Shown here: positions 35,877-50,155 of the stretch, piece after piece | Layout of the letters: each line of letters begins with the position of its first letter | Numbering within the stretch: the first letter of the stretch is position 1 | Assembly (NCBI GenBank): GCA_036172265.1 | Contig: JASFBA010000084.1 | Coordinates: 18,169-82,168 of the forward strand | Direction of reading: 5' to 3' | From: Chloroflexia bacterium | Lineage (GTDB): Bacteria > Chloroflexota > Chloroflexia > DTKN01 | DNA: 64,000 nt | The notes under the pieces: generated by a model | The model's input: the letters and a program-made list of their open reading frames with translations, nothing else | Database searches by the model: none | Told to the model about the DNA's origin: nothing | Position numbers and translations under genes: made by a program

Positions 35877-37145
35877 TCAGTGTTCCAGGAGCGGCAGCGG
35901 GTCAATAAGGGCGCCGTTATGACGCACGGCAAAGTGCAGGTGCACCCCGGAGGCGTAGCCTCCCTTTCCGTAAGTGCGGCCCATCGAACCGATGCGCTGC
36001 CCTTTTTCCACCTTATCTCCCACCCCGACGAGGGGGCGTTCGGCCAGGTGGCCGTACTCGGTGCGGAAGCCGTTGCCGTGGTCAATGGCTACATACCATC
36101 CCAGGGAGCCCCATCCGGCCTCGACCACGGTGCCGGCAGCGGCCGCGTAAATCGGCGTACCCCAGCGGTTGGCGATGTCTATGCCCCGATGGTAGCCGCC
36201 GTAGGCCCGGCTCCAGCCGAAGGGAGCGGTGATGGTGCCCCAGGTGGGCCAGCGCAACTTTTCTCCGCCGGGCATCTGGACCAGAATCGGTTTCGGCCTT
36301 TCCCCTTTGGCCACGGGGTGCTTGGGTATTTCCACGACCCCTCCGGGCACAAAGATCTCCTGGCCAGGTTCCAGGTGGTAGGGGTAGCGGAGTCCATTCG
36401 GCGGATAGCCGACGATGTTTCCGGCCCGCACGCCGTACATGTTGGCGATCGACTCCAGCGTTTCCCCGGGCTGCACCAGGTGCGGTGCTCCGGAGAGGGG
36501 GGGGATGGTAAGCACCATGCCGGGGTGCAGGTCCTGCGGTGTGCGCAGTTTGTTGACCCAGAAGATGGTATAGGAGGCCACGCCGAAGCGTTCGGCCAGC
36601 GCCTCCAAGGAGTCTCCAGCAGCAACCGTATAGGTGATCACATCCTTCATCAGGGGCAGGCCCGCTTCCTTCTTGGGGGAAGCATCGGCCGGGTCGGGGG
36701 GATCGGAGTCCTCCGTCCGGGTGTTCCTCTGCACTACCGTCAGCGGACCGACGGCGAAGTCAAAGGCGCTTTCTGGGGGATGGACAGGTTGCCCATAGAG
36801 GGGGATGCGGCCGCCCTCGCTATCTTCTTGCGCGGAGGAATAGGCGACATAGGGGCCGAAACGGCCGACCAGGGTAGAGAGAAGGAGAAGGAGCACACCC
36901 AAAGTGGCCCAATGGCGAAGCGGAATGGACCATTTCCAGGAAGGAACGGAAATGGAAATTTTCGGAGCAACGACCGGGGGGACCTTCCCCAGCCGTTCCC
37001 ACAGGACGTCTCGAGCAGGCTCTTCCACCCCCGCTCGTCTTCTCAGCGCTTGACGTGCTTCCTCAATCGCTTCCCCAACCGGCCGTTTCTTTATCCTTGG
37101 CTCTCCGCTTTGCCCCTTGGGAGGTCGCAGAGAAGGATCTAACAT
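35877..37145 (-). CDS. peptidase M23 family protein with two LysM domains
   Basis: Two LysM motifs (YTVAAGDSLEALAERFGV; HLVQPGETLESIANMYGV). The M23 active-site region is HRGIDI...GHLA...H.H. Confidence 0.8.
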   Translation of the reverse strand: MLDPSLRPPKGQSGEPRIKKRPVGEAIEEARQALRRRAGVEEPARDVLWERLGKVPPVVAPKISISVPSWKWSIPLRHWATLGVLLLLLSTLVGRFGPYVAYSSAQEDSEGGRIPLYGQPVHPPESAFDFAVGPLTVVQRNTRTEDSDPPDPADASPKKEAGLPLMKDVITYTVAAGDSLEALAERFGVASYTIFWVNKLRTPQDLHPGMVLTIPPLSGAPHLVQPGETLESIANMYGVRAGNIVGYPPNGLRYPYHLEPGQEIFVPGGVVEIPKHPVAKGERPKPILVQMPGGEKLRWPTWGTITAPFGWSRAYGGYHRGIDIANRWGTPIYAAAAGTVVEAGWGSLGWYVAIDHGNGFRTEYGHLAERPLVGVGDKVEKGQRIGSMGRTYGKGGYASGVHLHFAVRHNGALIDPLPLLEH

Positions 37146-38858: not shown

Positions 38859-40312
38859 TGCGTTTGCTGATCAAGGATGGCTGCGTGATCGACCCTTCCC
38901 AGAACCTGGGGACGGTGGCCGATGTGCTGGTGATCGACGGCCGCATCGCCGAGGTCGCCACGGCCCTGAGCACGGCAACCATTGACCCCCGCATTCCGGG
39001 TACACAGGTCATTGATGCGGCCGGCTGCATCGTCGCGCCGGGCTTTGTAGACCTGCACTGCCATTTGCGCCAGCCGGGGGAAGAGGACAAGGAGACGATT
39101 GCCAGCGGCACCCAAGCGGCGGCCCGGGGCGGCTTCACCCTGCTCTGCGCCATGCCCAACACGACCCCGCCTCCGGACACGGCGGCCGGGGTGCGGCAGG
39201 TGCTGGAGATGGCCGCTCAGGAGGGGGTGGTGCGGGTCCTTCCCGTGGGGGCTTTGAGCAAAGGGCGGGCCGGCCGGGAACTCACCGAGATGGCCGAACT
39301 GGCCGAGGCCGGGGCGGTGGCCTTTTCCGATGACGGCGATCCGGTGGAGGACGGACAACTCATGCGCCACGCCCTGCTCTACAGCACCTTGGTCGGGCTG
39401 CCCATCCTGGCCCATTGCGAAGACCGCGCCCTGAGCCGGCAGGCCGATATGAACGAGGGGCCACTTTGCACCCTGCTGGGGCTGCGGCCCTATCCGGCGG
39501 CGGCGGAGGTGGCGGCGGTGGCCCGCGAGATCGCCCTGGCCGAACTGACCGGGGGCCGGCTGCACATCTGCCATGTGAGCACCGCCGGGGCGGTGGAACT
39601 CATCCGTCAGGCCAAGGCCCGGGGCGTCCGGGTGAGCGCCGAGACAACCCCGCACCACCTGGCGCTCACGGAGGCCTGGGTAGCGGGCTCCCTCTATCGA
39701 GCCGTCCCCCTTCCGGAAAGCGAGCCGCTCCTCATGCCGCCGGCCGATTTCCCGCCCTACCACCCCAACACCAAGGTCAACCCGCCGTTGCGCCGGCGGG
39801 CCGACCTGGAGGCCCTCTGGGAGGGCCTGCGCGATGGGACGATCGATGCCATTGCTACCGACCACGCCCCCCACACGTGGGTAGATAAGGAGTGCGAGTT
39901 TGCCCTGGCCCGCCCGGGTTTCTCCGGGCTGGAAACGGCGCTGTCGCTCCTCCTCGTCCTTTCTCACCAGAACCTGGTGGACCTTTCCACCGTGGTGGGG
40001 GCGCTCACCTGCAACCCGGCACGCCTGCTGGGGCTTCCCTACGGCACCCTTCAGGTGGGCCGGCCGGCCGACATCACCATCTTCGACCCGGAGGAGGAAT
40101 GGACCGTCCGGCCCGAGGACTTTGCCTCCCGGGGCAAAAACACCCCCCTGGCCGGCCTGACACTACGGGGCCGGGTGCGCTGGACCCTCCTGGAGGGGCG
40201 AACGGTCTGGGGCCCTCCCCCCATCCCCGGAGATCGGTACCAACCCCGACCTCAAGTCTCCCGCCTGGAGGGCCTCCTGGGGAAAACTGGGCTGCTTCCG
40301 CCCCGGGATTAG
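38858..40312 (+). CDS. pyrC: dihydroorotase (with ~50 aa C-terminal extension)
   Basis: MRLLIKDG..VDLHCHLRQPG.. metal-binding HxH and DHAPH motifs. TGATG overlap with pyrB. Confidence 0.85.
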
Positions 40313-40460
40313 CCGTCCCGGCTTTCCCTCCATCCCCCTTCTCTTCCGAAACAGGAAGGCGGCTGTTCCGCCGAGGTCGCCCGGTGCCCTCCTCGGGACC
40401 GCGCAGTGCCGCTCACGAATACACGATTCGTGCATTCGTATCCGCCCCCGGCATCAGCAC

Positions 40461-42036
40461 CTACGACGCACTCGAAAGCGCCGCCAGGACCAGAGCCAGG
40501 GCCTGACGGCCCGCTTCGTCCAGTCCCGACGATAGGCGCTCCAGATCGCGCTCCCCTTCCAGGATACGTTGCAGGGCCCGGGCCAGCGTTGTCCTATCCT
40601 CGGCCCGGGCCATCTGCTCCAGCGCCTCCCGGATAGGCCGGGCGGCCTCCCCCCGGATGTCCCCCCGCGCCACGGCCGCCACGCCCTGGAGGAGGGGAAG
40701 CATCCGGACCACCGCCGGAGGGAGCGAGACCGCTTCCACCGCCTGCCGGGCCTGCTCCGCCAGTTGCGGGAGGCCGATTCCGTCAAAGATTTCCGCCGCC
40801 TGCAGGAGGTAGGGGCGGGCCTCCTCCGTACGGCCCAGTTCCCGCAGGACCAGGCCGAAGTTATACAGGTCGGCGGCGACATCGTAGCGACTGCCGATTT
40901 CTTCATGCCGGCGAACGGCCTCCTGGAGCAACCGCCGGGCCTCCTCATCCCGGCCCTCCTTCAGCGCCAGGCGGCTCAGGGAGGCCAGGGTATTGGCCTC
41001 CCCCAGCCGGGAGCCTACGGCCCGATAGAGCCCCAGCGCCGCCTCATAGGAGGCCAGCGCCGCATCCATTTCCTTCCGAAAACTCTGCACGTCCCCGATG
41101 GCCTTCCGGGTGTTGGCCTCTCCCCAGCCGGTCGCCTACGGCCCGATAGAGCCCCAGCGCCGCCTCGTAGGAGGCCAGCGCCGCATCGTATTCATCCAGG
41201 TAGTACAGCGTAAGCCCCAGGGAGTGGAAAATGTGGGCTCGCTCGGTCTCCTGACGCCCCTCCGTCTCCACAATGGCCAGGGCCTGTTCCAGTTCCCGCC
41301 GGGATTCCTGCCAGAGATTCTCTTGCCGGAGCAGGTCCCCCAGTTCCCGGTGGAGACGGGCCGCCAGGATAGTATGACCCGCTCCTACTCTTGCCATGTC
41401 CCCCAGGAGTTGACGGAGTAAACCCATGCGGGCCTGGCGGTCTTCCGGAGTTCCCGCAGGAATGCTCGTCTCAGCCACTTTTTGCGAAACTTTCAGCAGC
41501 CACGGGGCAAAGAGACGGAACACAAAGACCTGGCGGCGAAAGGCCCAGAAGTCCGGGGCCAACTGGTGAACCCGTCTCTCTGTGTCATAGGGGAACCATA
41601 GGACCATCGGATAGGGAAGACGGCCTAAAACTTCCCGCCGGTAGTTCAGATAGCGGGCAACGGTGTCCACCGTTTCCGGGTCAATGATCAGAAAAACCGC
41701 ATCACCTCCCACCCCTTCTTCAGAAGCCAACCGGGGCAGAAAGTCCTGAGAGGCCTGGTTGATCTTGAAAACCCGTATTCTCCAATCCGGGAGGCGCGCG
41801 GCCACTTCAGCGATCAGGCGATCGCGCAGGAGGGGGGAATCGTAAAAGGCCAGGAAGAGAGCAGGGTGCCCGCGCAGGGAACCCAGTGCGACACAAAGCC
41901 GCTCCAGTTCCTGAAAGCCTTCCTCATCCAGGGCGAGGGGTTCGGCCAGCAACCCCGTGAGCGGCACAGGCCAGGAAGGGACCTCTTCCAGGGTTGCTAC
42001 AGGAGAGATTTCACGATCGGATGAACGTCCCACCAC
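40461..42036 (-). pseudogene. TPR-repeat protein gene split by a +1 frameshift (ORFs 41044..42036 and 40461..41090), with an internal ~120-bp tandem duplication
   Basis: Removing one T in the homopolymer at ~41121 (ggcctcTcccc) joins ...AVGDRLGEANT.. to ..QSFRKEMDAALASYEA of the downstream ORF. TPR motifs occur throughout. Confidence 0.5.
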
Positions 42037-43268
42037 GAATCCTCGTTAGAGTACTCTAAAATGCTCAGGTTATGGAGAAGTTCCAGCAAAGCCAATTCTG
42101 ATTCCTCTTCTTCAGGCCGCTGCCGAACACGATGAATTTCCCGCACCCGCTTATCCCGGTGGACCATTTGTAACTGTGGGTAATGTTCGGCCCGCAGGGA
42201 ACGCTGATACTCGTTTCGGATGGTAGAAACGGCCGTCTGGGCTATAAGAAGGTCTATACTTTCTTTCCCTCTTACACGGGCCTCGTTGCAGGCCATTTGC
42301 ATCAGCGTGGTCATCTCTCGCATAACCCCGCCGCTCATCTCAATAAGGAACTCCAGCGCGTCCGGGGTAATCAACCCAAGTTCCATCCGGCGGGCGACCA
42401 TCTTCCGCATAATGCTTCGCCCTTTTTCATCAGGAGTTCCATCACGGTTCTGTATCTTGATATTGGGAAGGACAAACCAGCCGCTGAAACTTCGGGCAAC
42501 CGAACGGAACTCCGCTGTGTACAGAAGGGCGAGGGGAATGGTGTAGATGATTTTGCAGGGGAGTTGTGTCAATGTTGTGGCATGACGATAAAATAATTCC
42601 TGGGCTGTAGCGATGTCCGGTTTATCCAGGTCATCAATGGCAACCAGGACGCTCCGTATTAACTGGGTACGAACCAAACTGGCAAGCCAGGCGATATGGG
42701 TGACCAGGTCAGAAACTCTATGGGCCAGCGCTTGACGCAAATATTCCCGGGTAACCGCTTCCAGACGGAGTTTCCCTTGAGGGCCGATAAGCCCTTCAAA
42801 CCAGAGGCTCAGCAACTCAATGGGCGAGACTTTCTCCGGTCGGAGGAAGCCGACAGGCTCGCTCTGAGGCAACCAGAATCGTTCCAGCAGGCTTATTAGC
42901 CCTTCGTCCATCTGCACCCCGGCCTGGCGGGCCGCGCGGTACAGGCCGGCTTCAATCGCTATCACCAAGTCCACGTACCTCAGGTCCAGCGGGTCCAACA
43001 CGTCGGCAAGGGAGAGAGGGACAACGAGGAAGGCCTCCTGAATTTGGGGGTCCGCCAGAAGGCGATTCAGTTCGGTGGATTTACCACACCCCCGGTGTCC
43101 GGTAAACAAGATTTTGTCCGGAGAATCCGGTGCTCTGAGCAGAATTGGACGGATGCGATCCACCGGATTGGGCTCCCGGCCCACATAATATAATTCTAAC
43201 TGGGGACCGCTGAGGGGTTTCAGCGGGTCAAAGGCCAGATAGGCATCGTCCAGATTGGTGGCGATCAT
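41997..43268 (-). CDS. P-loop NTPase (AAA/Arch_ATPase-like)
   Basis: Walker A GHRGCGKST and Walker B LVAIDDLD. 423 aa, no effector domain recognised. Confidence 0.6.
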   Translation of the reverse strand: MIATNLDDAYLAFDPLKPLSGPQLELYYVGREPNPVDRIRPILLRAPDSPDKILFTGHRGCGKSTELNRLLADPQIQEAFLVVPLSLADVLDPLDLRYVDLVIAIEAGLYRAARQAGVQMDEGLISLLERFWLPQSEPVGFLRPEKVSPIELLSLWFEGLIGPQGKLRLEAVTREYLRQALAHRVSDLVTHIAWLASLVRTQLIRSVLVAIDDLDKPDIATAQELFYRHATTLTQLPCKIIYTIPLALLYTAEFRSVARSFSGWFVLPNIKIQNRDGTPDEKGRSIMRKMVARRMELGLITPDALEFLIEMSGGVMREMTTLMQMACNEARVRGKESIDLLIAQTAVSTIRNEYQRSLRAEHYPQLQMVHRDKRVREIHRVRQRPEEEESELALLELLHNLSILEYSNEDSWWDVHPIVKSLL

Positions 43269-43361
43269 CTTTCTCTCCTTTCGTTATGGGCCCGGACGAT
43301 CTCCGCCGTCAGTGGGCTGCTGAGCAGGAAGAGGATATGGGGGTGGCCTGGCGCGGGCATC

Positions 43362-43985
43362 TCATTTCTCCATTGCTTTCAGCCGTTCCTGAAGGAAGTC
43401 GTAGCCGCCCTGGGTCAGGAGGTACGCGGCCAGGGCCAGGGCTCGCTCTCTTTCCTCCCGGCTGCGCAGTTTCTCCAGGTAGGCCTCCACCTGGTCGGGG
43501 GGATGGAGAGCAGAGGCGCGGGCAAAAAGGGAGACCTGATGCTCCAGTTCCTCCACGGGGAGGCGAGTTGCCTGTTCCAGAAGGCGGATGCGGCCGGGGA
43601 GGAGGCTCTGATTGATCTGCTCCCAGCAGAAGCGCTGAAGGCGGCCGTAGAGGTCGGCCAGGGAGAGGGAGACTGCCTCCCCTATCTCCGGGTTCAGGGG
43701 CTGGAGGAGATTGATGCGGGTACGGAGGAGGGCCTGCCATCCCAGCCCCGCCGCCAGAGCCAGGAGGTAGGGGTTGGCCGCAGGAAAGGCGAACCACACC
43801 AGGGCAAAGATCGGAAGGGCGAGGGCTCCGTTGATCGCTATCAGCAGCCCGCTCCATCCACTCCGTAGCGCCCGACGAACGTCGCTCGGGAAGGCCTGGA
43901 CCACCTCAGTCAGGGCCCAGAGGCCAGCCAGGACAGCCACCAGCAGGTAGGGACCCAGTGCGTTGACCACGTCGCTGGCTGTCAT
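43362..43985 (-). CDS. hypothetical membrane protein (3-4 N-terminal TM helices + soluble helical domain)
   Basis: ORF with hydrophobic N-terminal half. Confidence 0.45.
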   Translation of the reverse strand: MTASDVVNALGPYLLVAVLAGLWALTEVVQAFPSDVRRALRSGWSGLLIAINGALALPIFALVWFAFPAANPYLLALAAGLGWQALLRTRINLLQPLNPEIGEAVSLSLADLYGRLQRFCWEQINQSLLPGRIRLLEQATRLPVEELEHQVSLFARASALHPPDQVEAYLEKLRSREERERALALAAYLLTQGGYDFLQERLKAMEK

Positions 43986-44000
43986 TGGGGCGCCCGTCCT

Positions 44001-44441
44001 TTATGCGCTGCGGATGGCGTCTCGTCCCCGCGCCGTCAGGAAAACCACATCCCACCCTCGCAGGGTCTTGATTTCCACCAATCCCTCTTGCTTCATCTCC
44101 TGCAGGACGGGGCGGATTTCGTCCGGCAACGAAAGGGTGGCGGCGGCCAGTTCGGGGAAAAGGGCCGGGCCCCGCCGATGGAGGTTTTCCAGAATCACCT
44201 GCCGAAGACGGGTCGTTTCCCGGTCCGCCGTCTCCTTGTCCCTGGTTTCCTCTTCCAATTGTCGGGCCAGGTTCGCCAGCGCCTCCTGGCTGGCCTTCAG
44301 TTTTTCCGCCTCGGGGGAATTCTCCTCTGCGCGAGATGCCAGAATACCGCTGATCCGACTCAGTTCCCGGGCGACGTCCGCCAGCAGCCGGACGGTATCC
44401 GCTATCCTTTTTGGTTCTCCGCTACCGATCACGCCCATCAT
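44001..44441 (-). CDS. hypothetical coiled-coil protein with possible C-terminal winged-helix
   Basis: 146 aa. Charged coiled-coil centre, then C-terminal LQEMKQEGLVEIKTLRGWDVVFLTARGRDAI. Confidence 0.4.
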   Translation of the reverse strand: MMGVIGSGEPKRIADTVRLLADVARELSRISGILASRAEENSPEAEKLKASQEALANLARQLEEETRDKETADRETTRLRQVILENLHRRGPALFPELAAATLSLPDEIRPVLQEMKQEGLVEIKTLRGWDVVFLTARGRDAIRSA

Positions 44442-44707
44442 TGCCTCCAGAACCAGAAGCCGCTGGAATTCCAGTCAGAATCCCCCTGGCCCCCTTTCCG
44501 TCTGCGGGAGAGAAGAGAGCCGTCCCTGTTTCTCTCCCTCCCCTTTGGAGAGAAGGGGATTGGGGGGATGAAGGGGTCAATCACCGCCTGTTTCCGGGAC
44601 GGTGAATCCAGGCGCACGCGACTCATCTCTATTTTACACCGCCAGAAAAGAGTTGACAACTTCCTCCGGAACGTGGCTGCACTTCCAGAATGACCGGCAC
44701 GTCCGGA

Positions 44708-45469
44708 TTAATGGGCCAGAAGGACATCTCCGGCCCGAATTCGGTGCAGGTTTCCATCGGGAGTACGGAGCAGAAGCGCGCCGTCTTCGTCTACCCCTTC
44801 GGCGATTCCCCGCAGTTCCCGTTCCGCTGTGACCACCCGCACGGGTCGGCCCAGGGTGGCCAGACGGGTGGCCCATTCGGCCCCGGGGCGTTCCCCGGTC
44901 CTCCACCGTTCACAGCGGTCCTTCACCCCGTTCAGGAGGCGATCCAGCAGAGCATCCCGGTCAGTGGTCTGGCCTGTCTCGGCCAGAATACTGGTGGCAT
45001 CGGGGGCCAGGTCGGGCAGAGCCTCTGCCGGGACGTTCACGTTGATTCCTATGCCGACGATCACGAACTCCAGCCGGTTGCCGGAGAAGCCGGTTTCGGC
45101 CAGGAGTCCTCCCAGTTTCCGCCAGGATTCCCCCCGGGCGATGATGAGGTCATTGGGCCACTTGAGGGAGACCGGGAGGCCAGCGGTGGCCGCTACGGCG
45201 TCGGCGGCGGCCAGGGCGCAGATCATAATCAGGTCTGTGGCAGGAGCAAAGAGTCCCACACCGGTGGCAGGCCGAAAGAGGAGGGAGCAGAGCAGGGAGG
45301 TGCCGGGTGGCGCCAGCCAGCGCCTCCCCAGGCGGCCCCGTCCGGCGGTCTGGTAGTCGGCGGTGACCACTGTTCCCTCCGGTGCCCCTCGCGCGGCCAG
45401 GTCCCGGGCCACGTCGTTGGTAGAGGTTGTGGAGGGCAGATGGATGCGGGTAAAGGTAATATGGTTCAT
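44708..45469 (-). CDS. birA: biotin--[acetyl-CoA-carboxylase] ligase (group I, no DNA-binding domain)
   Basis: Start at ATG 45469. TADYQTAGRGRLGRRW and KWPNDL motifs. Confidence 0.8.
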   Translation of the reverse strand: MNHITFTRIHLPSTTSTNDVARDLAARGAPEGTVVTADYQTAGRGRLGRRWLAPPGTSLLCSLLFRPATGVGLFAPATDLIMICALAAADAVAATAGLPVSLKWPNDLIIARGESWRKLGGLLAETGFSGNRLEFVIVGIGINVNVPAEALPDLAPDATSILAETGQTTDRDALLDRLLNGVKDRCERWRTGERPGAEWATRLATLGRPVRVVTAERELRGIAEGVDEDGALLLRTPDGNLHRIRAGDVLLAH

Positions 45470-45590
45470 GGCTGGAAAAGCAACCGCGCAGAAAATGATA
45501 TACCGCCGGGCTATTTCCGTCAAGTGCTTGACTTTCCAAAGGATTGGGTTAAAATGCATCCCACCGCCGTTCCCTTGTTCTGGAGGACGG

Positions 45591-47819
45591 ATGAAACGCT
45601 CTTCCTTACCGGTCATCTTGTTGATAGTGGTATTTGTTGGACTTGGTCTGCTTTATGGGATAACCGTTCCCCCCTTTGAGAATCTGGATGAGATAGAGCA
45701 TTTCGGAGTTATTCGCTACATTGCTGAAACGGGTCGCCTCCCCGTCCATGGCACTCCTGAGGCAGAGGTGTACCACTACCGGCAGGAGGCCTCCCAGCCC
45801 CCGCTGTACCATCTGCTCTCCGCTGGACTGGTGCGCCTCCTGGGGCTGTGGGCCGGGGATATGGGGATGTATATCCGGTTTAACCCTCGCGTAGCCTGCG
45901 GCCCTAATGCTCCCTTCCTCTACGATAATCGGGCCATTTTCTACCATAACCCTCATCGGGAGCGCTTCCCCTGGCAAGGCACCCTCCTGATGCTTCACGT
46001 CCTGCGCATTGGGTGCACCTTTCTACAGGCCTTTACCGTCCTCGGCACCTGGGCGCTGGCAAGGCGCATCTTCCCCACCCGTCCGGGAATCGCTCCGCTG
46101 GCCACCGCGATCGTGGCCTTTAACCCCCAGTTCCTCTTCGTCGCCAGCGGCGTGAATAACGACAATTGGGTAACTCCCCTGGCGACATGGGGCCTCTACC
46201 TGCTGGTTTGCCTCTGGCAGGAAGGCCTCTCGGCCCAACGTACATTCGCGCTGGGTATTCTGATCGGACTGGCGGGGCTCTCTAAACTCAGCGGTTGGCT
46301 TTTACTCCCTCTTGCTCTGCCGGTTATTTTGACCGGGGCCTATCGTCTCAAACGAACTGCTTCCCGCTCGTGGATGGTTTCCCTTATCACTCATTGGTCA
46401 TTGGTCATTGCATTGCCCCTTGCCCTCTCCGGCTGGTGGTTTTGGCGCAACTGGTATCTCTATGGTGACCCCACTGCGCTGGCCCCTATGCTGAAACTGG
46501 TGGGCGTGCGGGGGTCGCCCATTTACCCCTGGACAGAGGCAAGTCTGGTATTTCGCTCCTTCTGGGGACAAATTCCCTGTTCCTTCTTCCCTGCCGGTTT
46601 TTATGTCCCCTACATCCTGATTACCGGTATCGGCATTTTCGGCCTGTTCGGGGGCCGGCGACAATTCCTCCCTCCAGAACGGAGGGCTGCTGTCCTCCTC
46701 GTGGCATGGTTCCTGCTGGTACTGGTCGGCTGGGCACGGTGGGATATGATCACTCCTGCACCGGGTGGCCGTCTTCTCTTTCCTGCTCTTCCCGCCGTTG
46801 GCCTTCTCCTCGCATTGGGTATTCACTCGCCGATCCTTCAGCCCTCTGGTATTCCGTCACCCATCCGGTCGTCGGTTGTTCCGTTGTTGGTTGTTCTTCT
46901 GTTCATTCTGGCCTTCTGGACGGTGGCCGTCATTTTGCCCGCCTTCTACGCTCCACCGCCCCGATATGCCAACCCTAACGCTGTGCGTCCCCAGCATCCC
47001 ACCCAGGTGCACTTCGGTGACTCCATCCGCCTCCTGGGTTACGACCTGCACGCCCGACCTGAGAAAGGTTTTCTGGACGTGACCCTTTACTGGCAGGCTG
47101 TTGTGCCGATGACGGACGATTCCGTCATGGCCCTGCAACTGGTCTCCCCAATCCCCGGCGACGACACTCTGCGCTGGACCTACGACTCCTGGCCCGGGCG
47201 CGGAAATTACCCCACCTCCGCCTGGAAGCCCGGCGAGGTGCTTCAGGACCGCTACCGGTTCTATCTACCGGCGGCGAATTTCCCCACCCAGGCCTGGGAC
47301 CTGCAAGTAGTTCTGTACCATCCGGAGAAGGGAGCCCTCCCTGTCTCGGTTGACGGGACATCAGCCGGAAGACGATGGCCTCTCGGACGGCTGCGGCTGC
47401 CGGGGACGACGCCGGCCTGCCCCGAATCCGACCGTCTGACAGCGGGGGTCCATCTGGGCGAGAGTGTGGCGTTAACCCATGCCGGTGTGATGACCGATGA
47501 GACGGGGACGCGGGTCACCCTGTGCTGGCAGAGTCTTGCTCCATTGGCAGAGGATTACCACGTTTTCGTCCACCTGTACGACCCCTCCGACACCCTGCTG
47601 GCGGCAGGGGACGGGCCGCCGATGGGGGGCGCGTTCCCTACCTCCTTCTGGAAGCCGGGGGATGTGGTTCTGGACATTCATCCCCTGCCTCCGCTGGTGG
47701 AAGGGGGCCGCGTTGCTGTGGGGCTCTACCGGCTGCAGGACGGCGTCCGCCTGCCGGTGACCATCGGGGGCACACCCGTCCCGAACGCGGCCATTCCCAT
47801 CTGGCCGGAGCGGCCATGA
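45591..47819 (+). CDS. PMT/ArnT-like (GT39-type, GT-C fold) membrane glycosyltransferase paralog A, with duplicated C-terminal soluble domain
   Basis: N-terminal loop LDEIEHFG (DExxH), multi-TM core, and two C-terminal repeats of (F/L)GDxI.LLGYDL...LYWQA...FPTSFWKPGDV. Confidence 0.65.
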   Translation: MKRSSLPVILLIVVFVGLGLLYGITVPPFENLDEIEHFGVIRYIAETGRLPVHGTPEAEVYHYRQEASQPPLYHLLSAGLVRLLGLWAGDMGMYIRFNPRVACGPNAPFLYDNRAIFYHNPHRERFPWQGTLLMLHVLRIGCTFLQAFTVLGTWALARRIFPTRPGIAPLATAIVAFNPQFLFVASGVNNDNWVTPLATWGLYLLVCLWQEGLSAQRTFALGILIGLAGLSKLSGWLLLPLALPVILTGAYRLKRTASRSWMVSLITHWSLVIALPLALSGWWFWRNWYLYGDPTALAPMLKLVGVRGSPIYPWTEASLVFRSFWGQIPCSFFPAGFYVPYILITGIGIFGLFGGRRQFLPPERRAAVLLVAWFLLVLVGWARWDMITPAPGGRLLFPALPAVGLLLALGIHSPILQPSGIPSPIRSSVVPLLVVLLFILAFWTVAVILPAFYAPPPRYANPNAVRPQHPTQVHFGDSIRLLGYDLHARPEKGFLDVTLYWQAVVPMTDDSVMALQLVSPIPGDDTLRWTYDSWPGRGNYPTSAWKPGEVLQDRYRFYLPAANFPTQAWDLQVVLYHPEKGALPVSVDGTSAGRRWPLGRLRLPGTTPACPESDRLTAGVHLGESVALTHAGVMTDETGTRVTLCWQSLAPLAEDYHVFVHLYDPSDTLLAAGDGPPMGGAFPTSFWKPGDVVLDIHPLPPLVEGGRVAVGLYRLQDGVRLPVTIGGTPVPNAAIPIWPERP

Positions 47820-50155
47820 AACCCGCTCATTTCTACTGGTTGGCTATCTCTCTGCTCCTGATTTTGTGGGCGCTGACTCTCTATGCGGCCCGCTCTACTT
47901 CTATGGTCATTGATGAAGGGATGCACTTGGCCAGCGGCTACAGTATCCTCCGGACCGGGGATTACCGCCTGGTAGAGGAACATCCGCCGTTGGTCAAACT
48001 GTGGGCTTCTCTTCCCCTATTTTTTGTGCCCGATATCTCTGACCCCAGAGGGCTTGCAGCGTGGGAAGAGGCTCTTCTGGATCCGACCGATAGCCTCTCT
48101 TTGCTGGCGGTGGCCCGGGAGACGATCACTTCATATCGGCCGATAGAGCGGCTGGTCTTTCCAGCGCGGGCAATGGTGGCGTTGCTTGGTCTTGTTCTGG
48201 GAGCCGTTGTCTGCCGATGGGCGGCAGACCTGGGAGGGGCGTGGGCTGGGGTCTTTGCTCTTTTTCTGGTGGCGCTGGACCCTAACATCCTGGCTCACGC
48301 GTCGGTGGCAGGAACTGACCTGGGAGCGGCTGTGACAGCGGCACTGGCTCTTTTCCTCTTCGCCCGTTGGCTCCGCCAACCAACGGTTACCAAATGGCTG
48401 GCAGCGGGCCTGGCATTGGGGTTGGCCCTGGGTACTAAAACGTCGGCCATCCTTCTGGTCCCGACGCTCTTCCTTTTAGGGTTGGGGGTTCGCCCCCGGT
48501 ATATCATTGCTCTGTTGGCGCTTTTCGGCCTGGCTGGCCTGACTCTATGGGCTCTCTATAGATTTGAATTCGGTCCAATTCCTGGCACCGGAGTTCTTGT
48601 TCCGGCCCCCAGCCATGCCATCCCTTCTCTCCGTCTGCGCCGCCATATAGCCGACGGCCACCCATCCTTTCTGTTGGGGGAGAACCGCACCCACGGCTGG
48701 TGGTACTACTTCCCCGTCGCTTTTGCTCTGAAGACTCCTTTGCCCACTCAACTGTTTCTCGCCCTTTCACTGGCTTCGGCTGCCCTCACTCTCCTCCGCC
48801 GTCCCGGGGAGATAGCCCGTCTTGTCGGCCGATGGGGTCCGGTGGCCCTCTTCCCCTTCCTCTATGGGATTAGCACGCTGGCAAGCCCCCTGAACATCGG
48901 TTATCGCCATTTGCTCCCGATGCTCCCATGTCTGTTTGTCCTGGCTGGTTACGAATTACGCAATATGCAATATGCAGTACGCCCATACTTCTTCCGTATC
49001 CCGTTTTTACTCCTCCTGGCCTGGCTGGCTCTTGGCACGCTGCGAGTTGCGCCCCACTATCTGGCCTATTTCCACGAACTGGCAGGCGGTCCGGATAACG
49101 GCTGGCGCTACCTGGCCGATTCCAACACCGATTGGGGTCAAGGCTACAAAGACCTGGCCCGTTTCCAGCGGGAGCGCGGGCTGGGAACAGTATATCTTTC
49201 GGCCTTTCTTCTCATCAACGATCCAGCCATCTACGGCGTGCGGTATGAACCGCTGACTCCGATGTGGGGGACAACCCCAGCGATTTTTCCTTCCCGATTC
49301 AACCCATCACCAGGCGATTATGTTATCAGTGCTACCACATTGGACGGAATCCCGCTGGTAGACCCGGAGATGTATGACTGGTTCCGTAAGCGGGAACCGG
49401 ATGCCCGGATTGCCCACGTGCTCTTCTACTACCATGTTCCGCCTCGGGAGCCGGCCCCGGAGTGGGTGGCTCAGTGTGCCGCGCCGATGGCTCCGCTGAC
49501 GCCAGAGGCCATCGCGGAGGGCTTTGGCCGGGATGACCTGCGGCAGGTGGATTTTGACTGCACTCAGGCCTGGCTGTATCCGGACGGAGGGATGTCTGCC
49601 GGATGGTATGTCCTGCATCGGGATTCATCTCTGGAGACGTGGTTTATTCGGAGTCATCTGGCTTCCTCTCGCCTTTCCTATGAGCAGAGACGGCGAGGAG
49701 CATTACCTCCCTTTCGCATCTACGAGTGGCCGGCCGGTACGCCTGTCCTGAGGCCTGCGACCCTGTTGCTTCCTGAAGGAGCATCCTCGTCTGTGCTTTT
49801 AGATGGTCCACTGATGTTTCTGGGAGCCCGCGCTTTATCCGAAGCCGATGGCCTGACCATAGAGACCTGGTGGCAGGTCACCGAAGGGCCGATTACCCGT
49901 CCGCTTTCCATTATAGGGCATCTCCTGAATGGGGCGGGCGAACTGATCGGGCAGGATGACGGCCTGGGAGTTTCGCCGGTACTCTGGCAGCCAAGGGACA
50001 TCATTGTCCAGCGCCACCGGTTTCCCCTCCCCCCTGCCGGTGAAGAACTCTGGCTGCGCACCGGGGCCTACTGGCTGGATACAATGGAGCGGTGGCCCGT
50101 TGCGGATTTTCCTCAGAGGGATATAATGCTGATACCGCTGAGGAAAGGAAAATAG
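47815..50155 (+). CDS. PMT/ArnT-like (GT39-type) membrane glycosyltransferase paralog B
   Basis: ATGA overlap with paralog A. VIDEGMHLASGY loop, multi-TM core, and a C-terminal domain ending WLDTMERW that is shared with paralogs C and D. Confidence 0.65.

Follow-up and report, generated by a model that had tools for sequence, protein, structure and literature searches.

A putative two-gene module of an ORC/Cdc6- or STAND-like ATPase and a tetratricopeptide repeat partner in Bacteria and Archaea

A 64-kb stretch of the Chloroflexia contig JASFBA010000084.1 (hereafter the window; coordinates refer to its whole length) carries, between pyrC and birA, a cluster of four genes, all on the minus strand. 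In the order of reading these encode a 146-amino-acid (aa) protein, a 207-aa membrane protein, a 423-aa P-loop nucleoside triphosphatase (NTPase) and a protein with an array of tetratricopeptide repeats (TPRs), here termed the partner. As far as sequences can tell, the core of the cluster is an uncharacterised, horizontally spread two-gene module, consisting of an ORC/Cdc6- or STAND-like ATPase and a partner in which a conserved N-terminal domain (N-domain) precedes the TPRs. The initial annotation had taken the four genes for one candidate signalling or defence unit. The two-gene core of that proposal stands, but conservation of all four genes does not, since the coiled-coil/winged-helix and membrane protein genes occur in the closest relatives only. 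The general kind of system, an AAA+ or STAND NTPase with a TPR sensor, is well known; the pair itself is without a curated family and without a description in the literature searched, which included PMC7159879 and PMC13581612.

The NTPase and its partner

Open reading frames (ORFs) were called in 85 loci, with starts placed to give the longest ORF, and were searched with iteratively built hidden Markov models (handles such as L001 denote loci and those such as P0264 proteins). Ninety NTPase ORFs or fragments were found: 81 have the partner directly downstream, four have no room for one, and five are split fragments or an upstream tandem copy. A same-strand partner with an N-domain of ~170 aa and a TPR array thus follows directly in 81 of the 81 loci with room, and bacterial and archaeal loci alike keep the pairing, over NTPase identities that range from 84% to about 30%. 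An overlap of a few bases between the two genes is usual; in the window's clade it amounts to 40 nt. In P0264, the only fused representative seen, NTPase and TPR repeats form one protein. Co-conservation and this fused protein support the proposal that NTPase and TPR protein function as a pair. The proposal had been staked on two points, and on both the result is favourable: the two genes are conserved together, and no housekeeping family matches the NTPase.

The family is large and patchily distributed across phyla and domains. Searching 1.84 billion cluster representatives with the NTPase profile gave 1,628 matches at E ≤ 1e-30 and 5,301 at E ≤ 1e-3, which puts the family at 1,628 or more clusters (50% identity). 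Among 185,579 species genomes, one per GTDB species, those that encode the NTPase number at least 525. Eighty fetched loci comprise about 50 from Chloroflexota (mostly Anaerolineae), 17 from archaea (ANME-1/-2, Methanoperedens, Methanophagales and other Methanosarcinales) and about a dozen from other bacterial phyla, among them Desulfobacterales, Brocadiaceae, Acidobacteriota, Trueperaceae, Chthonomonadaceae, Gallionella and Desantisbacteria. The same profile found no relative among the 2.9 million viral contigs of IMG/VR.

The Walker A motif GHRGCGKST (residues 57–65) and Walker B motif LVAIDDLDK (residues 208–216) reported for the window NTPase are both in place. Alignment A1, of 28 NTPase homologues, was used for conservation and for the AlphaFold (AF2) model. 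It has 37 invariant residues, including K63, D212/D215 and H416–P417. The invariant Walker A positions are G57, H58, R59, G60, G62 and K63; in Walker B, L208 and D215 are invariant, with I211, D212 and K216 nearly so; and in the C-terminal winged helix N400, E405, Y406, W412, H416 and P417 are invariant. Written as family motifs, these regions read GHRGxGKS[TS]EL and hhhhIDDLDK, followed by SGGVxRE in the lid and LLHNLSILEY.N..W.DVHP in the winged helix. Full-length homologues, of ~405–430 aa, run to hundreds. Nearly all of the top 150 representatives are ~400–470 aa long and hence have no large fused domain; the exceptions are shorter entries, which seem to be fragments, and the longer P0163, P0228 and P0264. 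P0228 (857 aa) has a C-terminal AAA_21/AAA_15 (ABC/OLD-type) ATPase region, and P0163 (593 aa) a 185-aa N-terminal extension with no Pfam match; either variant may be a fusion or a gene-calling artefact.

In the AF2 model (mean predicted local distance difference test score, pLDDT, 90.2; predicted template-modelling score 0.89) the NTPase comprises an α/β P-loop core, a helical lid and the winged helix, with a helical insert of ~100 residues between Walker A and Walker B. The model thus has the tripartite layout of the STAND superfamily, nucleotide-binding domain (NBD), helical domain and winged helix, and the sequence has the STAND P-loop motifs, Walker A GxxxxGK[ST] and Walker B hhhhD[DG]xD. 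Foldseek comparison with the PDB placed archaeal Cdc6/Orc1 (1fnn, 2qby, 1w5t and 2v1u) and Tn7 TnsC (8vcj) at the top, at E ~2e-6; the Cdc6/Orc1 matches have E 1.6e-6 to 6e-6 and template-modelling (TM) scores of 0.40–0.56. RuvB, eukaryotic ORC/Cdc6, RFC and CED-4 (2a5y, E 4e-5) come next. Identity to the best structural matches is ~11–15%. The invariant H416–P417 (DVHP) lies at the C-terminal end of the winged helix, and we considered it for the position of the MHD-like histidine that touches bound nucleotide in STAND proteins. A DDxD Walker B together with a terminal histidine recalls STAND proteins; the GGVxRE lid motif resembles the AAA+ sensor-2 arginine rather than the STAND GxP. Going by its best structural matches, the modelled NTPase would be an AAA+ protein of ORC/Cdc6–STAND type. 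A fold search of BFVD gave only generic AAA+, KAP and RFC matches, and the lid has weak PHROG matches to ‘DNA transposition protein’ and clamp loader.

Scans of all five ORFs of the cluster against Pfam, NCBIfam, PADLOC and PHROGs gave nothing above threshold but TPR models. That no named system could be recognised therefore still holds after these searches: the NTPase falls outside the housekeeping families and named systems of Pfam, NCBIfam, PADLOC and PDB sequences. For the window NTPase, Pfam gives AAA_assoc_2, DUF5137 and AAA_22 only, all far below their cut-offs, and none of the curated STAND models (NACHT, NB-ARC, AAA_16 and nSTAND) is above threshold; some homologues match AAA_16 or NACHT faintly, the best AAA_16 score tested being 25.1 bits against a cut-off of 32.6. 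There is likewise no Cdc6/ORC match in Pfam or NCBIfam and no match among PDB sequences to place the NTPase with ORC/Cdc6. Searches of PDB sequences found no significant relative, whether the query was the single NTPase sequence or a profile of the NTPase, the 146-aa or the 207-aa protein; the best match of the A1 profile is the RFC small subunit at E 0.13. The best PADLOC-DB v2 matches, at E 0.007–0.04, are to fragments of JetC, LmuB, VakA and PbeC. The label ‘split STAND-like architecture’ is thus fair as a description of appearance (NBD, lid, winged helix, hhhhDDxD and His-Pro) but not of STAND membership.

The partner had been annotated as a TPR-repeat protein. TPRs are present, matched by TPR_12 and TPR_2 at residues 225–299 of the 5′ partner ORF and by TPR_12 in the 3′ ORF (E 1.4e-15, Pfam), but the protein is not made of repeats only: the conserved α/β N-domain ahead of them had been overlooked. 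Alignment A2 of partner N-domains has the family motifs LNxxRExF, hVFWL and APDFWAFR and contains no Walker A and no conserved acidic Walker B. An AF2 model of the first 305 residues (pLDDT 79) has a five-stranded α/β domain followed by TPR helices, and its Foldseek matches in the PDB are TPR proteins mixed with the AAA+ cores of ORC4, RFC, Cdc6, DnaA, Hda and clamp-loader δ. We tentatively regard the modelled N-domain as a P-loop-less AAA+-like domain. The further idea that it is a recognisable paralogue of the NTPase was unsupported at the sequence level, the hhalign profile comparison being negative.

Homologue searches with the N-domain gave 6 and 19 proteins, and partner diversity was assessed from the fetched loci. 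Across these, total partner length is about 300 to 1,179 aa and the TPR array is variable. The ten longest partners have TPRs only beyond the N-domain, except for a ParB_N+HTH_ParB fusion in L028; the 1,179-aa partner of L047 also carries this fusion. Matches to TPR_MalT and AfsR-type TPRs are partial and below cut-offs. In the window the TPRs are followed, at 40461–40760, by a C-terminal helical extension of ~100 aa (...LQRILEGERDLERLSSGLDEAGRQALALVLAAL...), which is absent from L001, partly matched in L008 and has a weak Pfam match to FIMAH only.

The window locus and its frameshift

The initial annotation described four consecutive minus-strand genes laid out as one apparent unit, and the ORFs agree with it (Table 1), as do the spacings, a 15-nt gap and a 93-nt gap followed by the 40-nt overlap of the NTPase stop with the TPR start. 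A Shine-Dalgarno-like purine run, read from the sequence, lies 5′ of each of the four starts. Orthologues of all four occur at 57–83% identity in other Anaerolineae contigs, and we therefore take the ORFs for genes and not chance ORFs. The flanks are housekeeping genes, as had been noted: pyrR-pyrB-pyrC on the plus strand (Pfam matches Pribosyltran, OTCace and Amidohydro_1/DHOase), with pyrC convergent to the partner gene, and a biotin protein ligase gene (birA) on the minus strand.

The partner had been given as one ORF of ~525 aa. This is not so, since 42036–40461 is 1576 nt long, which is not divisible by 3; the gene reads as a 330-aa ORF (42036–41044) and a 209-aa ORF (41090–40461) in different frames. 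The cause is one extra A within the TPR array, where CTGGGG-A-GAGGCC stands against CTGGGGGAGGCC in the next repeat unit. Two adjacent TPR units that are 95% identical bracket it, and their 66-nt copies are spaced 121 nt apart, not 120. Without the A at ~41121 the gene would encode 524 aa, in collinear alignment with the intact proteins of L001, L007 and L008 (...AVGDRLGEANT.KAIGDV.SFRKEMD...). A 329-aa product of the 5′ ORF (P0121) is present in the public protein collection; the frameshift was therefore already in the deposited assembly. Judging by sequence, the window copy of the partner gene is either a recent pseudogene or an assembly error, and the window copy of the module may be inactive. 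A programmed frameshift was considered and dropped, the shift lying after a G-run between near-identical repeats and the orthologues being in frame.

Table 1. Features of the cluster and its immediate surroundings in the window
Feature	Coordinates	Strand	Evidence or remarks
146-aa accessory protein gene	44001..44441	-	ORF; variable helical N-half, conserved C-terminal 55 aa
207-aa accessory membrane protein gene	43362..43985	-	ORF and hydropathy
423-aa P-loop NTPase gene (core component)	41997..43268	-	ORF, AF2 model, alignment
Walker A of NTPase	43074..43100	-	GHRGCGKST
Walker B of NTPase	42621..42647	-	LVAIDDLDK
C-terminal winged helix of NTPase	42009..42185	-	residues ~362–420; model secondary structure H-H-E-E; motif LLHNLSILEY.N..W.DVHP
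Partner gene, 5′ part	41122..42036	-	disordered N-terminus, N-domain, first TPRs; in frame until frameshift
Partner N-domain	41467..41925	-	residues ~38–190, five-stranded α/β; motifs LNYRRE, VLWF, APDFWAFR; no Walker A
Partner gene, 3′ part	40461..41120	-	further TPRs and ~100-aa C-terminal helical extension; shifted frame
Frameshift	41121..41121 (about)	-	one extra A inside TPR array
Two 66-nt direct repeats	41001..41187	.	95% identical, adjacent TPR units bracketing frameshift; repeat search
Sigma-70-like promoter match	44631..44659	-	TTGTCA-17-TAAAAT; in 266-nt spacer between birA and 146-aa protein gene; consensus match only
Terminator-like hairpin	40358..40372	-	GGCGG-AACAG-CCGCC and T-rich tail; 3′ of partner gene, between it and the convergent pyrC; consensus match only

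The promoter and terminator entries of Table 1 should be read against their background: promoter-like sites in the region number 2 against 0.8 expected, and terminator-like sites are no more numerous than in shuffled sequence. An Rfam scan of 39800–45200 gave no match near any gathering score; the Moco/tungsten riboswitch model reaches 18.6 bits at 44475–44578 on the minus strand, against a gathering score of 36 (E 0.79), most likely by chance.

Two short sequence blocks, GGATTnnCCGTCCCGG and TCCCyCCAwTCCCCTTCTCT, are found at 40306–40344 and again, inverted, at 44549–44609, so that they bracket the four-gene cluster; they occur nowhere else in the 64-kb window. The 20-mer has 2 matches against 0.05 expected. 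The left copy overlaps the pyrC stop codon and the right one lies in the spacer between birA and the 146-aa protein gene. None of the loci fetched up to that point has the motif, and the contigs of relatives with all four genes are cut short downstream. The copies could mark the two termini of a cassette that was inserted, represent an intergenic element that was duplicated, or have arisen by chance. Elsewhere in the window, 45363–50155 holds two long consecutive plus-strand ORFs whose translations look rich in transmembrane segments, the first of 818 aa with no Pfam match and the second of 877 aa with a weak match to PMT_2 (glycosyltransferase family 39-like), both lengths being those of the longest ORF. 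An M23 peptidase with LysM domains is encoded at 35877–37145.

Accessory genes, genomic contexts and signs of mobility

The ‘coiled-coil’ and ‘winged-helix’ labels given earlier to the 146-aa protein find sub-threshold support only, and compositional matches to designed coiled coils add little. The sub-threshold matches are to SelB-wing and DUF6293_C in Pfam and to MarR, GntR and Crp chains at E 0.04–0.5; the C-terminal 55 residues (GPALFPELAAATLSLPDEIRPVLQ.M..EGLVEI.T.RGW) are almost invariant and look winged-helix-like. Hydropathy upholds the N-terminal transmembrane helices proposed for the 207-aa protein, with hydrophobic stretches at about residues 10–31 and 45–66 and a weaker one at 70–87. 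A conserved helical cytoplasmic part (RTRINLLQPL.PE.GEAVSLSL.DLYGR) follows, and the protein has no family match in Pfam, NCBIfam, PADLOC, PHROGs or the PDB.

These two genes have a narrow distribution. By tblastn of the first 85 loci, the membrane protein is encoded in L006 and L008 only, directly upstream of the NTPase, and the 146-aa protein in none. Contigs of closer relatives (L086/L087, L088/L089 and L090) have the four genes in the window's order. Their identity to the window is 58–61% for the 146-aa protein, 65–77% for the membrane protein, 77–83% for the NTPase and 57–66% for the partner; across L006, L008 and L086–L090 together membrane protein identity is 65–80%. In L088, L089 and L090 the membrane gene as called runs 4 nt into the NTPase gene. 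In L086–L090 the block follows sucCD, S-Me-THD and NicX genes where the window has birA; the same block between different flanks (NicX/sucCD against pyrC/birA) indicates that the four genes stayed together across a change of context. Neither accessory gene occurs in L001 (NTPase 75% identical; ackA upstream, opposite strand), in the L009/L092/L093 lineage (ruvB upstream), in L091 (FHA-domain and SDR genes upstream) or in any more distant locus. On this sequence comparison, the 146-aa and membrane protein genes are putative lineage-specific accessories that joined the operon in the window's Anaerolineae lineage. They may work with the pair: conservation of the block speaks for it, and the narrow distribution against a core role.

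Several features suggest that the two-gene module is an accessory, horizontally spread one. The NTPase gene has a GC content of 0.545 against 0.62–0.70 in its surroundings, and in the window and four relatives (L086, L088, L090 and L001) its GC content at third codon positions (GC3) is 0.62–0.72 against 0.78–0.90 in neighbouring genes; the accessory genes are host-like in this respect (GC3 0.72–0.89). The genomic position of the pair differs between close relatives, and a search of the window for an empty site or shared synteny, with the relatives' flanking genes (sucCD, NicX, PEPCK and others), gave no match. In L005 one partner is preceded by two NTPase paralogues in tandem. Split NTPase genes are found in L035, L061 and L068 as well as in L009, L092 and L093. 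In the last three the split falls at about residue 95–100 (L009 8074–9269, L092 7783–8972 and L093 5775–7039); as the three are independent assemblies from a single Chloroflexia lineage, the disruption would seem to be real and fixed and not a random assembly error.

The annotated neighbours of the pair are mostly housekeeping genes: pyruvate:ferredoxin oxidoreductase, PEPCK, ackA, sucCD, PGM, PRPP synthase and pyr genes. In two loci of archaeal type (L002 5986–12800 and L005 2761–10486) the pair interrupts a pyruvate:ferredoxin oxidoreductase operon, with the alpha gene on one side, the beta gene on the other and every gene on the same strand. An NTP_transf_2 gene follows the pair, and next to it comes a UPF0150 (HicB-like) gene in L002 and a HEPN gene in L005. 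MNT/HEPN genes lie at most 2 kb from the pair in L092 and L093, L001 has an orphan NTP_transf_2 (MNT-like) gene ~1.3 kb upstream of it, and in L069 Mrr and IS200 are nearby.

A larger cluster is typical of the Anaerolineales branch, whose NTPases have about 31–35% identity to that of the window. Among loci with enough upstream sequence, a MraZ-like gene is found upstream in 29 of 71 (those with at least 700 nt), a histidine kinase with seven transmembrane helices and PAS and GAF domains in 19 of 47, a LuxR-type response regulator in 15 of 60 and a second N-domain/TPR protein in 16 of 41. Eight loci have ParB_N+HTH_ParB domains, either as part of the partner or encoded by the gene after it, a count not limited by room; the fusion to the partner is that of L028 and L047, and elsewhere the domains are in the next TPR protein. 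The order of the larger cluster (L028–L084, for example L047 2371–15556) is N-domain/TPR, histidine kinase, response regulator, MraZ-like, NTPase, N-domain/TPR. The same arrangement in L066, a contig binned as Gallionella, implies that the larger cluster moves between phyla too, if the binning is right. In the window's clade the winged helix-turn-helix (wHTH)-like and membrane proteins hold the upstream positions equivalent to those of the Anaerolineales signalling genes.

Possible roles and relation to known systems

The reading that we favour, at somewhat less than an even chance, is that the pair forms a nucleotide-dependent sensor switch in two parts, whose output is regulation or DNA binding and which resembles a MalT/AfsR-type regulator divided over two proteins. 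A switch with its TPR sensor in trans is suggested by the strict pairing, the lack of an enzymatic effector, the conserved winged helix and the lineage-specific DNA-binding, membrane and signalling partners. In such a switch the N-domain would dock a TPR sensor or scaffold onto the NTPase, and a ligand or protein on the TPR array would shift the nucleotide state or the oligomerisation of the NTPase. The output would be non-enzymatic, with the winged helix of the NTPase and lineage-specific DNA-binding partners binding DNA or exerting regulation; in the window's lineage the wHTH-like and membrane proteins would be accessory parts of the operon.

Several points weigh against this. We infer the mechanism from anatomy and context. 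The signalling genes are limited to one order-level branch, where they may reflect inherited synteny and not a link in function, and the archaeal and window-clade loci are without them. The winged helices of STAND and ORC proteins often serve control of the nucleotide state rather than DNA binding. The AAA+ matches of the N-domain model are weak (E 1e-4 to 3e-3, TM score 0.25–0.37, at mean pLDDT 79), and hhalign finds no match between the NTPase and N-domain profiles. Pseudogenisation (counting the window partner gene and the split NTPases of L009/L092/L093, L035, L061 and L068), the varying length of the TPR array and the toxin-antitoxin genes in the vicinity would be just as natural in a conflict system.

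Such a conflict system could be a split STAND/Avs-type anti-phage or abortive-infection system, in which the TPR partner would sense a phage protein and the NTPase would form oligomers, killing being done here by the 207-aa membrane protein and elsewhere by an effector that is unrecognised or acts in trans. The STAND-like NBD, lid and winged helix, the DDxD Walker B, the invariant His-Pro and the CED-4 match are in keeping with it, as are the patchy spread, which suggests horizontal transfer, the atypical NTPase GC3, the tandem paralogues, the TPR arrays in partners of about 300 to 1,179 aa and the recurring pseudogenes. The toxin-antitoxin genes of MNT/HEPN or HicB-like type beside or close to the pair in L002, L005 and L092/L093, the NTP_transf_2 gene of L001 and the Mrr and IS200 of L069 point the same way; MNT/HEPN pairs are, however, very abundant in these taxa anyway. 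No protein of the cluster matches a PADLOC model at a meaningful E-value, and the partners and NTPases examined carry no fused effector domain, whether nuclease, protease, TIR, SIR2 or another. The membrane protein is limited to a small clade and the annotated neighbours are mostly housekeeping genes. Enrichment of the family in filamentous and aggregate-forming lineages, as reported for other NTPase conflict systems (PMC7159879), is a further point in favour of defence. Altogether we consider this reading unlikely; the suggestion of a defence role in the initial annotation gained no positive evidence, given the lack of a PADLOC match, of an effector and of relatives in viral contigs, and the housekeeping neighbours.

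Less likely than either the regulatory switch or defence are two readings in which the ATPase handles DNA or proteins for the cell. An ORC/Cdc6-like loader or chromosome organiser acting with MraZ- and ParB-type proteins, that is, a housekeeping or cell-cycle factor, would agree with the structural matches to the initiators Cdc6/Orc1 and the loaders TnsC and RFC, with the 29 loci that have a MraZ-like gene upstream and the 8 that have fused or adjacent ParB domains, and with neighbours that are often housekeeping genes. It is highly improbable for a family that is patchy (at least 525 of 185,579 species genomes), tandemly duplicated, frameshifted in places and foreign-looking in codon usage, that keeps no genomic position between close relatives and that has no Cdc6/ORC, DnaA or RFC sequence match above threshold. 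A chaperone or assembly machine, in which an AAA+ ATPase with a TPR adaptor remodels a client complex (compare MoxR–vWA pairs and TPR co-chaperones), is also very unlikely. Such a machine could well be a two-gene module of ATPase and adaptor with no effector, TPR arrays are typical protein–protein adaptors, and two archaeal contigs have the pair within an operon for pyruvate:ferredoxin oxidoreductase. The fold matches, however, fall on the initiator, clamp-loader and STAND side of AAA+ and not among the unfoldase or MoxR clades, a conserved C-terminal winged helix is unusual for remodelling AAA+ proteins, and no client gene is consistent across contexts.

A separate doubt concerns the four genes, which might not be one unit, the 146-aa and 207-aa genes being mere neighbours in one Anaerolineae subclade. 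Both are absent from L001, L009/L091–L093 and, L006 and L008 aside, L002–L085; they are host-like in GC3 (0.72–0.89), unlike the NTPase; and in the window a 93-nt gap separates the membrane gene from the NTPase. We nonetheless find this rather doubtful, since order and strand are kept in the window and L086–L090 despite birA or NicX upstream, the membrane and NTPase genes overlap by 4 nt in L088, L089 and L090, and the membrane gene is directly upstream in L006 and L008 also.

The favoured switch can be extended to a bolder proposal, which we offer as a speculation with a good deal less than even support: a previously undescribed two-component nucleotide switch, in which an active ORC/Cdc6–STAND-like ATPase would assemble with a P-loop-less AAA+-like sensor carrier, would have come by horizontal transfer to be shared by filamentous Chloroflexota and consortium-forming ANME/Methanosarcinales and would serve as an effector-less immune or kin/partner-sensing regulator with lineage-specific outputs (wHTH and membrane protein here; MraZ, ParB and a two-component system in Anaerolineales). 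Should the reading be right, it concerns a large family without a curated model or described function, of at least 1,600 clusters at 50% identity in at least 525 species and two domains of life. STAND/ORC-like switches could then use a sensor in trans by way of a degenerate AAA+-like domain, extending the design space of NLR-like and MalT-like machines. Because the family is concentrated in Anaerolineae and in methane-oxidising or methanogenic archaea, poorly studied organisms of filaments and consortia, it is a candidate sensor of phage, partners or environment in them. For annotation, the pair should be called as one system, the partner as more than a ‘tetratricopeptide repeat protein’, and the window copy should be flagged as frameshifted.

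Among known systems, the iSTAND ternary systems share with the module the concept of an inactive STAND-like domain accompanying an active AAA+ ATPase, and occur in lineages of multicellular habit (PMC7159879). These iSTAND, or MoxR–vWA, ternary conflict systems require a MoxR ATPase and a vWA protein (Kaur et al. 2020, PMC7159879). Identity with them was rejected: the annotated contexts examined have no MoxR or vWA genes, and no effector or effector-associated (EAD) domains.

ORC/Cdc6 and TnsC are the best structural matches to the NTPase and have the same three-part layout ending in a winged helix. Unlike ORC/Cdc6, the module is not single-copy and not origin-linked, always has a TPR partner and has the ~100-residue insert, and the near-universal occurrence, stable position and intactness of ORC/Cdc6 initiators are not seen in the NTPase family. 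Clamp loader γ/δ/δ′ and ORC also combine an active ATPase with a P-loop-less AAA+-like subunit, a likeness that is an analogy only, the structural similarity being weak.

Faint or sub-threshold matches to ATPase_2 (PF01637), ORC-CDC6-like (PF24389) and KAP (PF07693) are found in some members of the NTPase family. Proteins of these families are, like the NTPase, standalone ATPases of ~400–450 aa and of uncharacterised function. The IDDLDK Walker B resembles the KAP motif; PF07693 is faint for P0062 and P0119, scores 20.6 bits on P0281 (cut-off 20) and 17.1 on P0228, and does not match the window protein. The NTPase differs from KAP proteins in having no transmembrane inserts, its ~100-residue insert being modelled as soluble helices. 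To our knowledge an obligate TPR partner is not a described feature of the ATPase_2, ORC-CDC6-like or KAP families.

With the STAND proteins that carry TPRs (NB-ARC/NACHT/AAA_16, Avs, MalT, AfsR/SARP and LAL) the module shares the P-loop core, helical lid and winged helix, the hhhhDDxD Walker B, an invariant histidine near the winged-helix end, a variable TPR array as presumed sensor and a patchy, horizontal spread. It has neither an N-terminal effector nor the LuxR or SARP DNA-binding domain of MalT and AfsR. Where STAND proteins fuse a C-terminal sensor on the same polypeptide, the TPR gene of the module is separate (81 of 81 loci), and the separate sensor opens with a conserved α/β domain of its own. 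Compared with the single-protein regulators MalT, LAL and AfsR, the module is split over two genes, and the NTPase winged helix is its only DNA-binding candidate.

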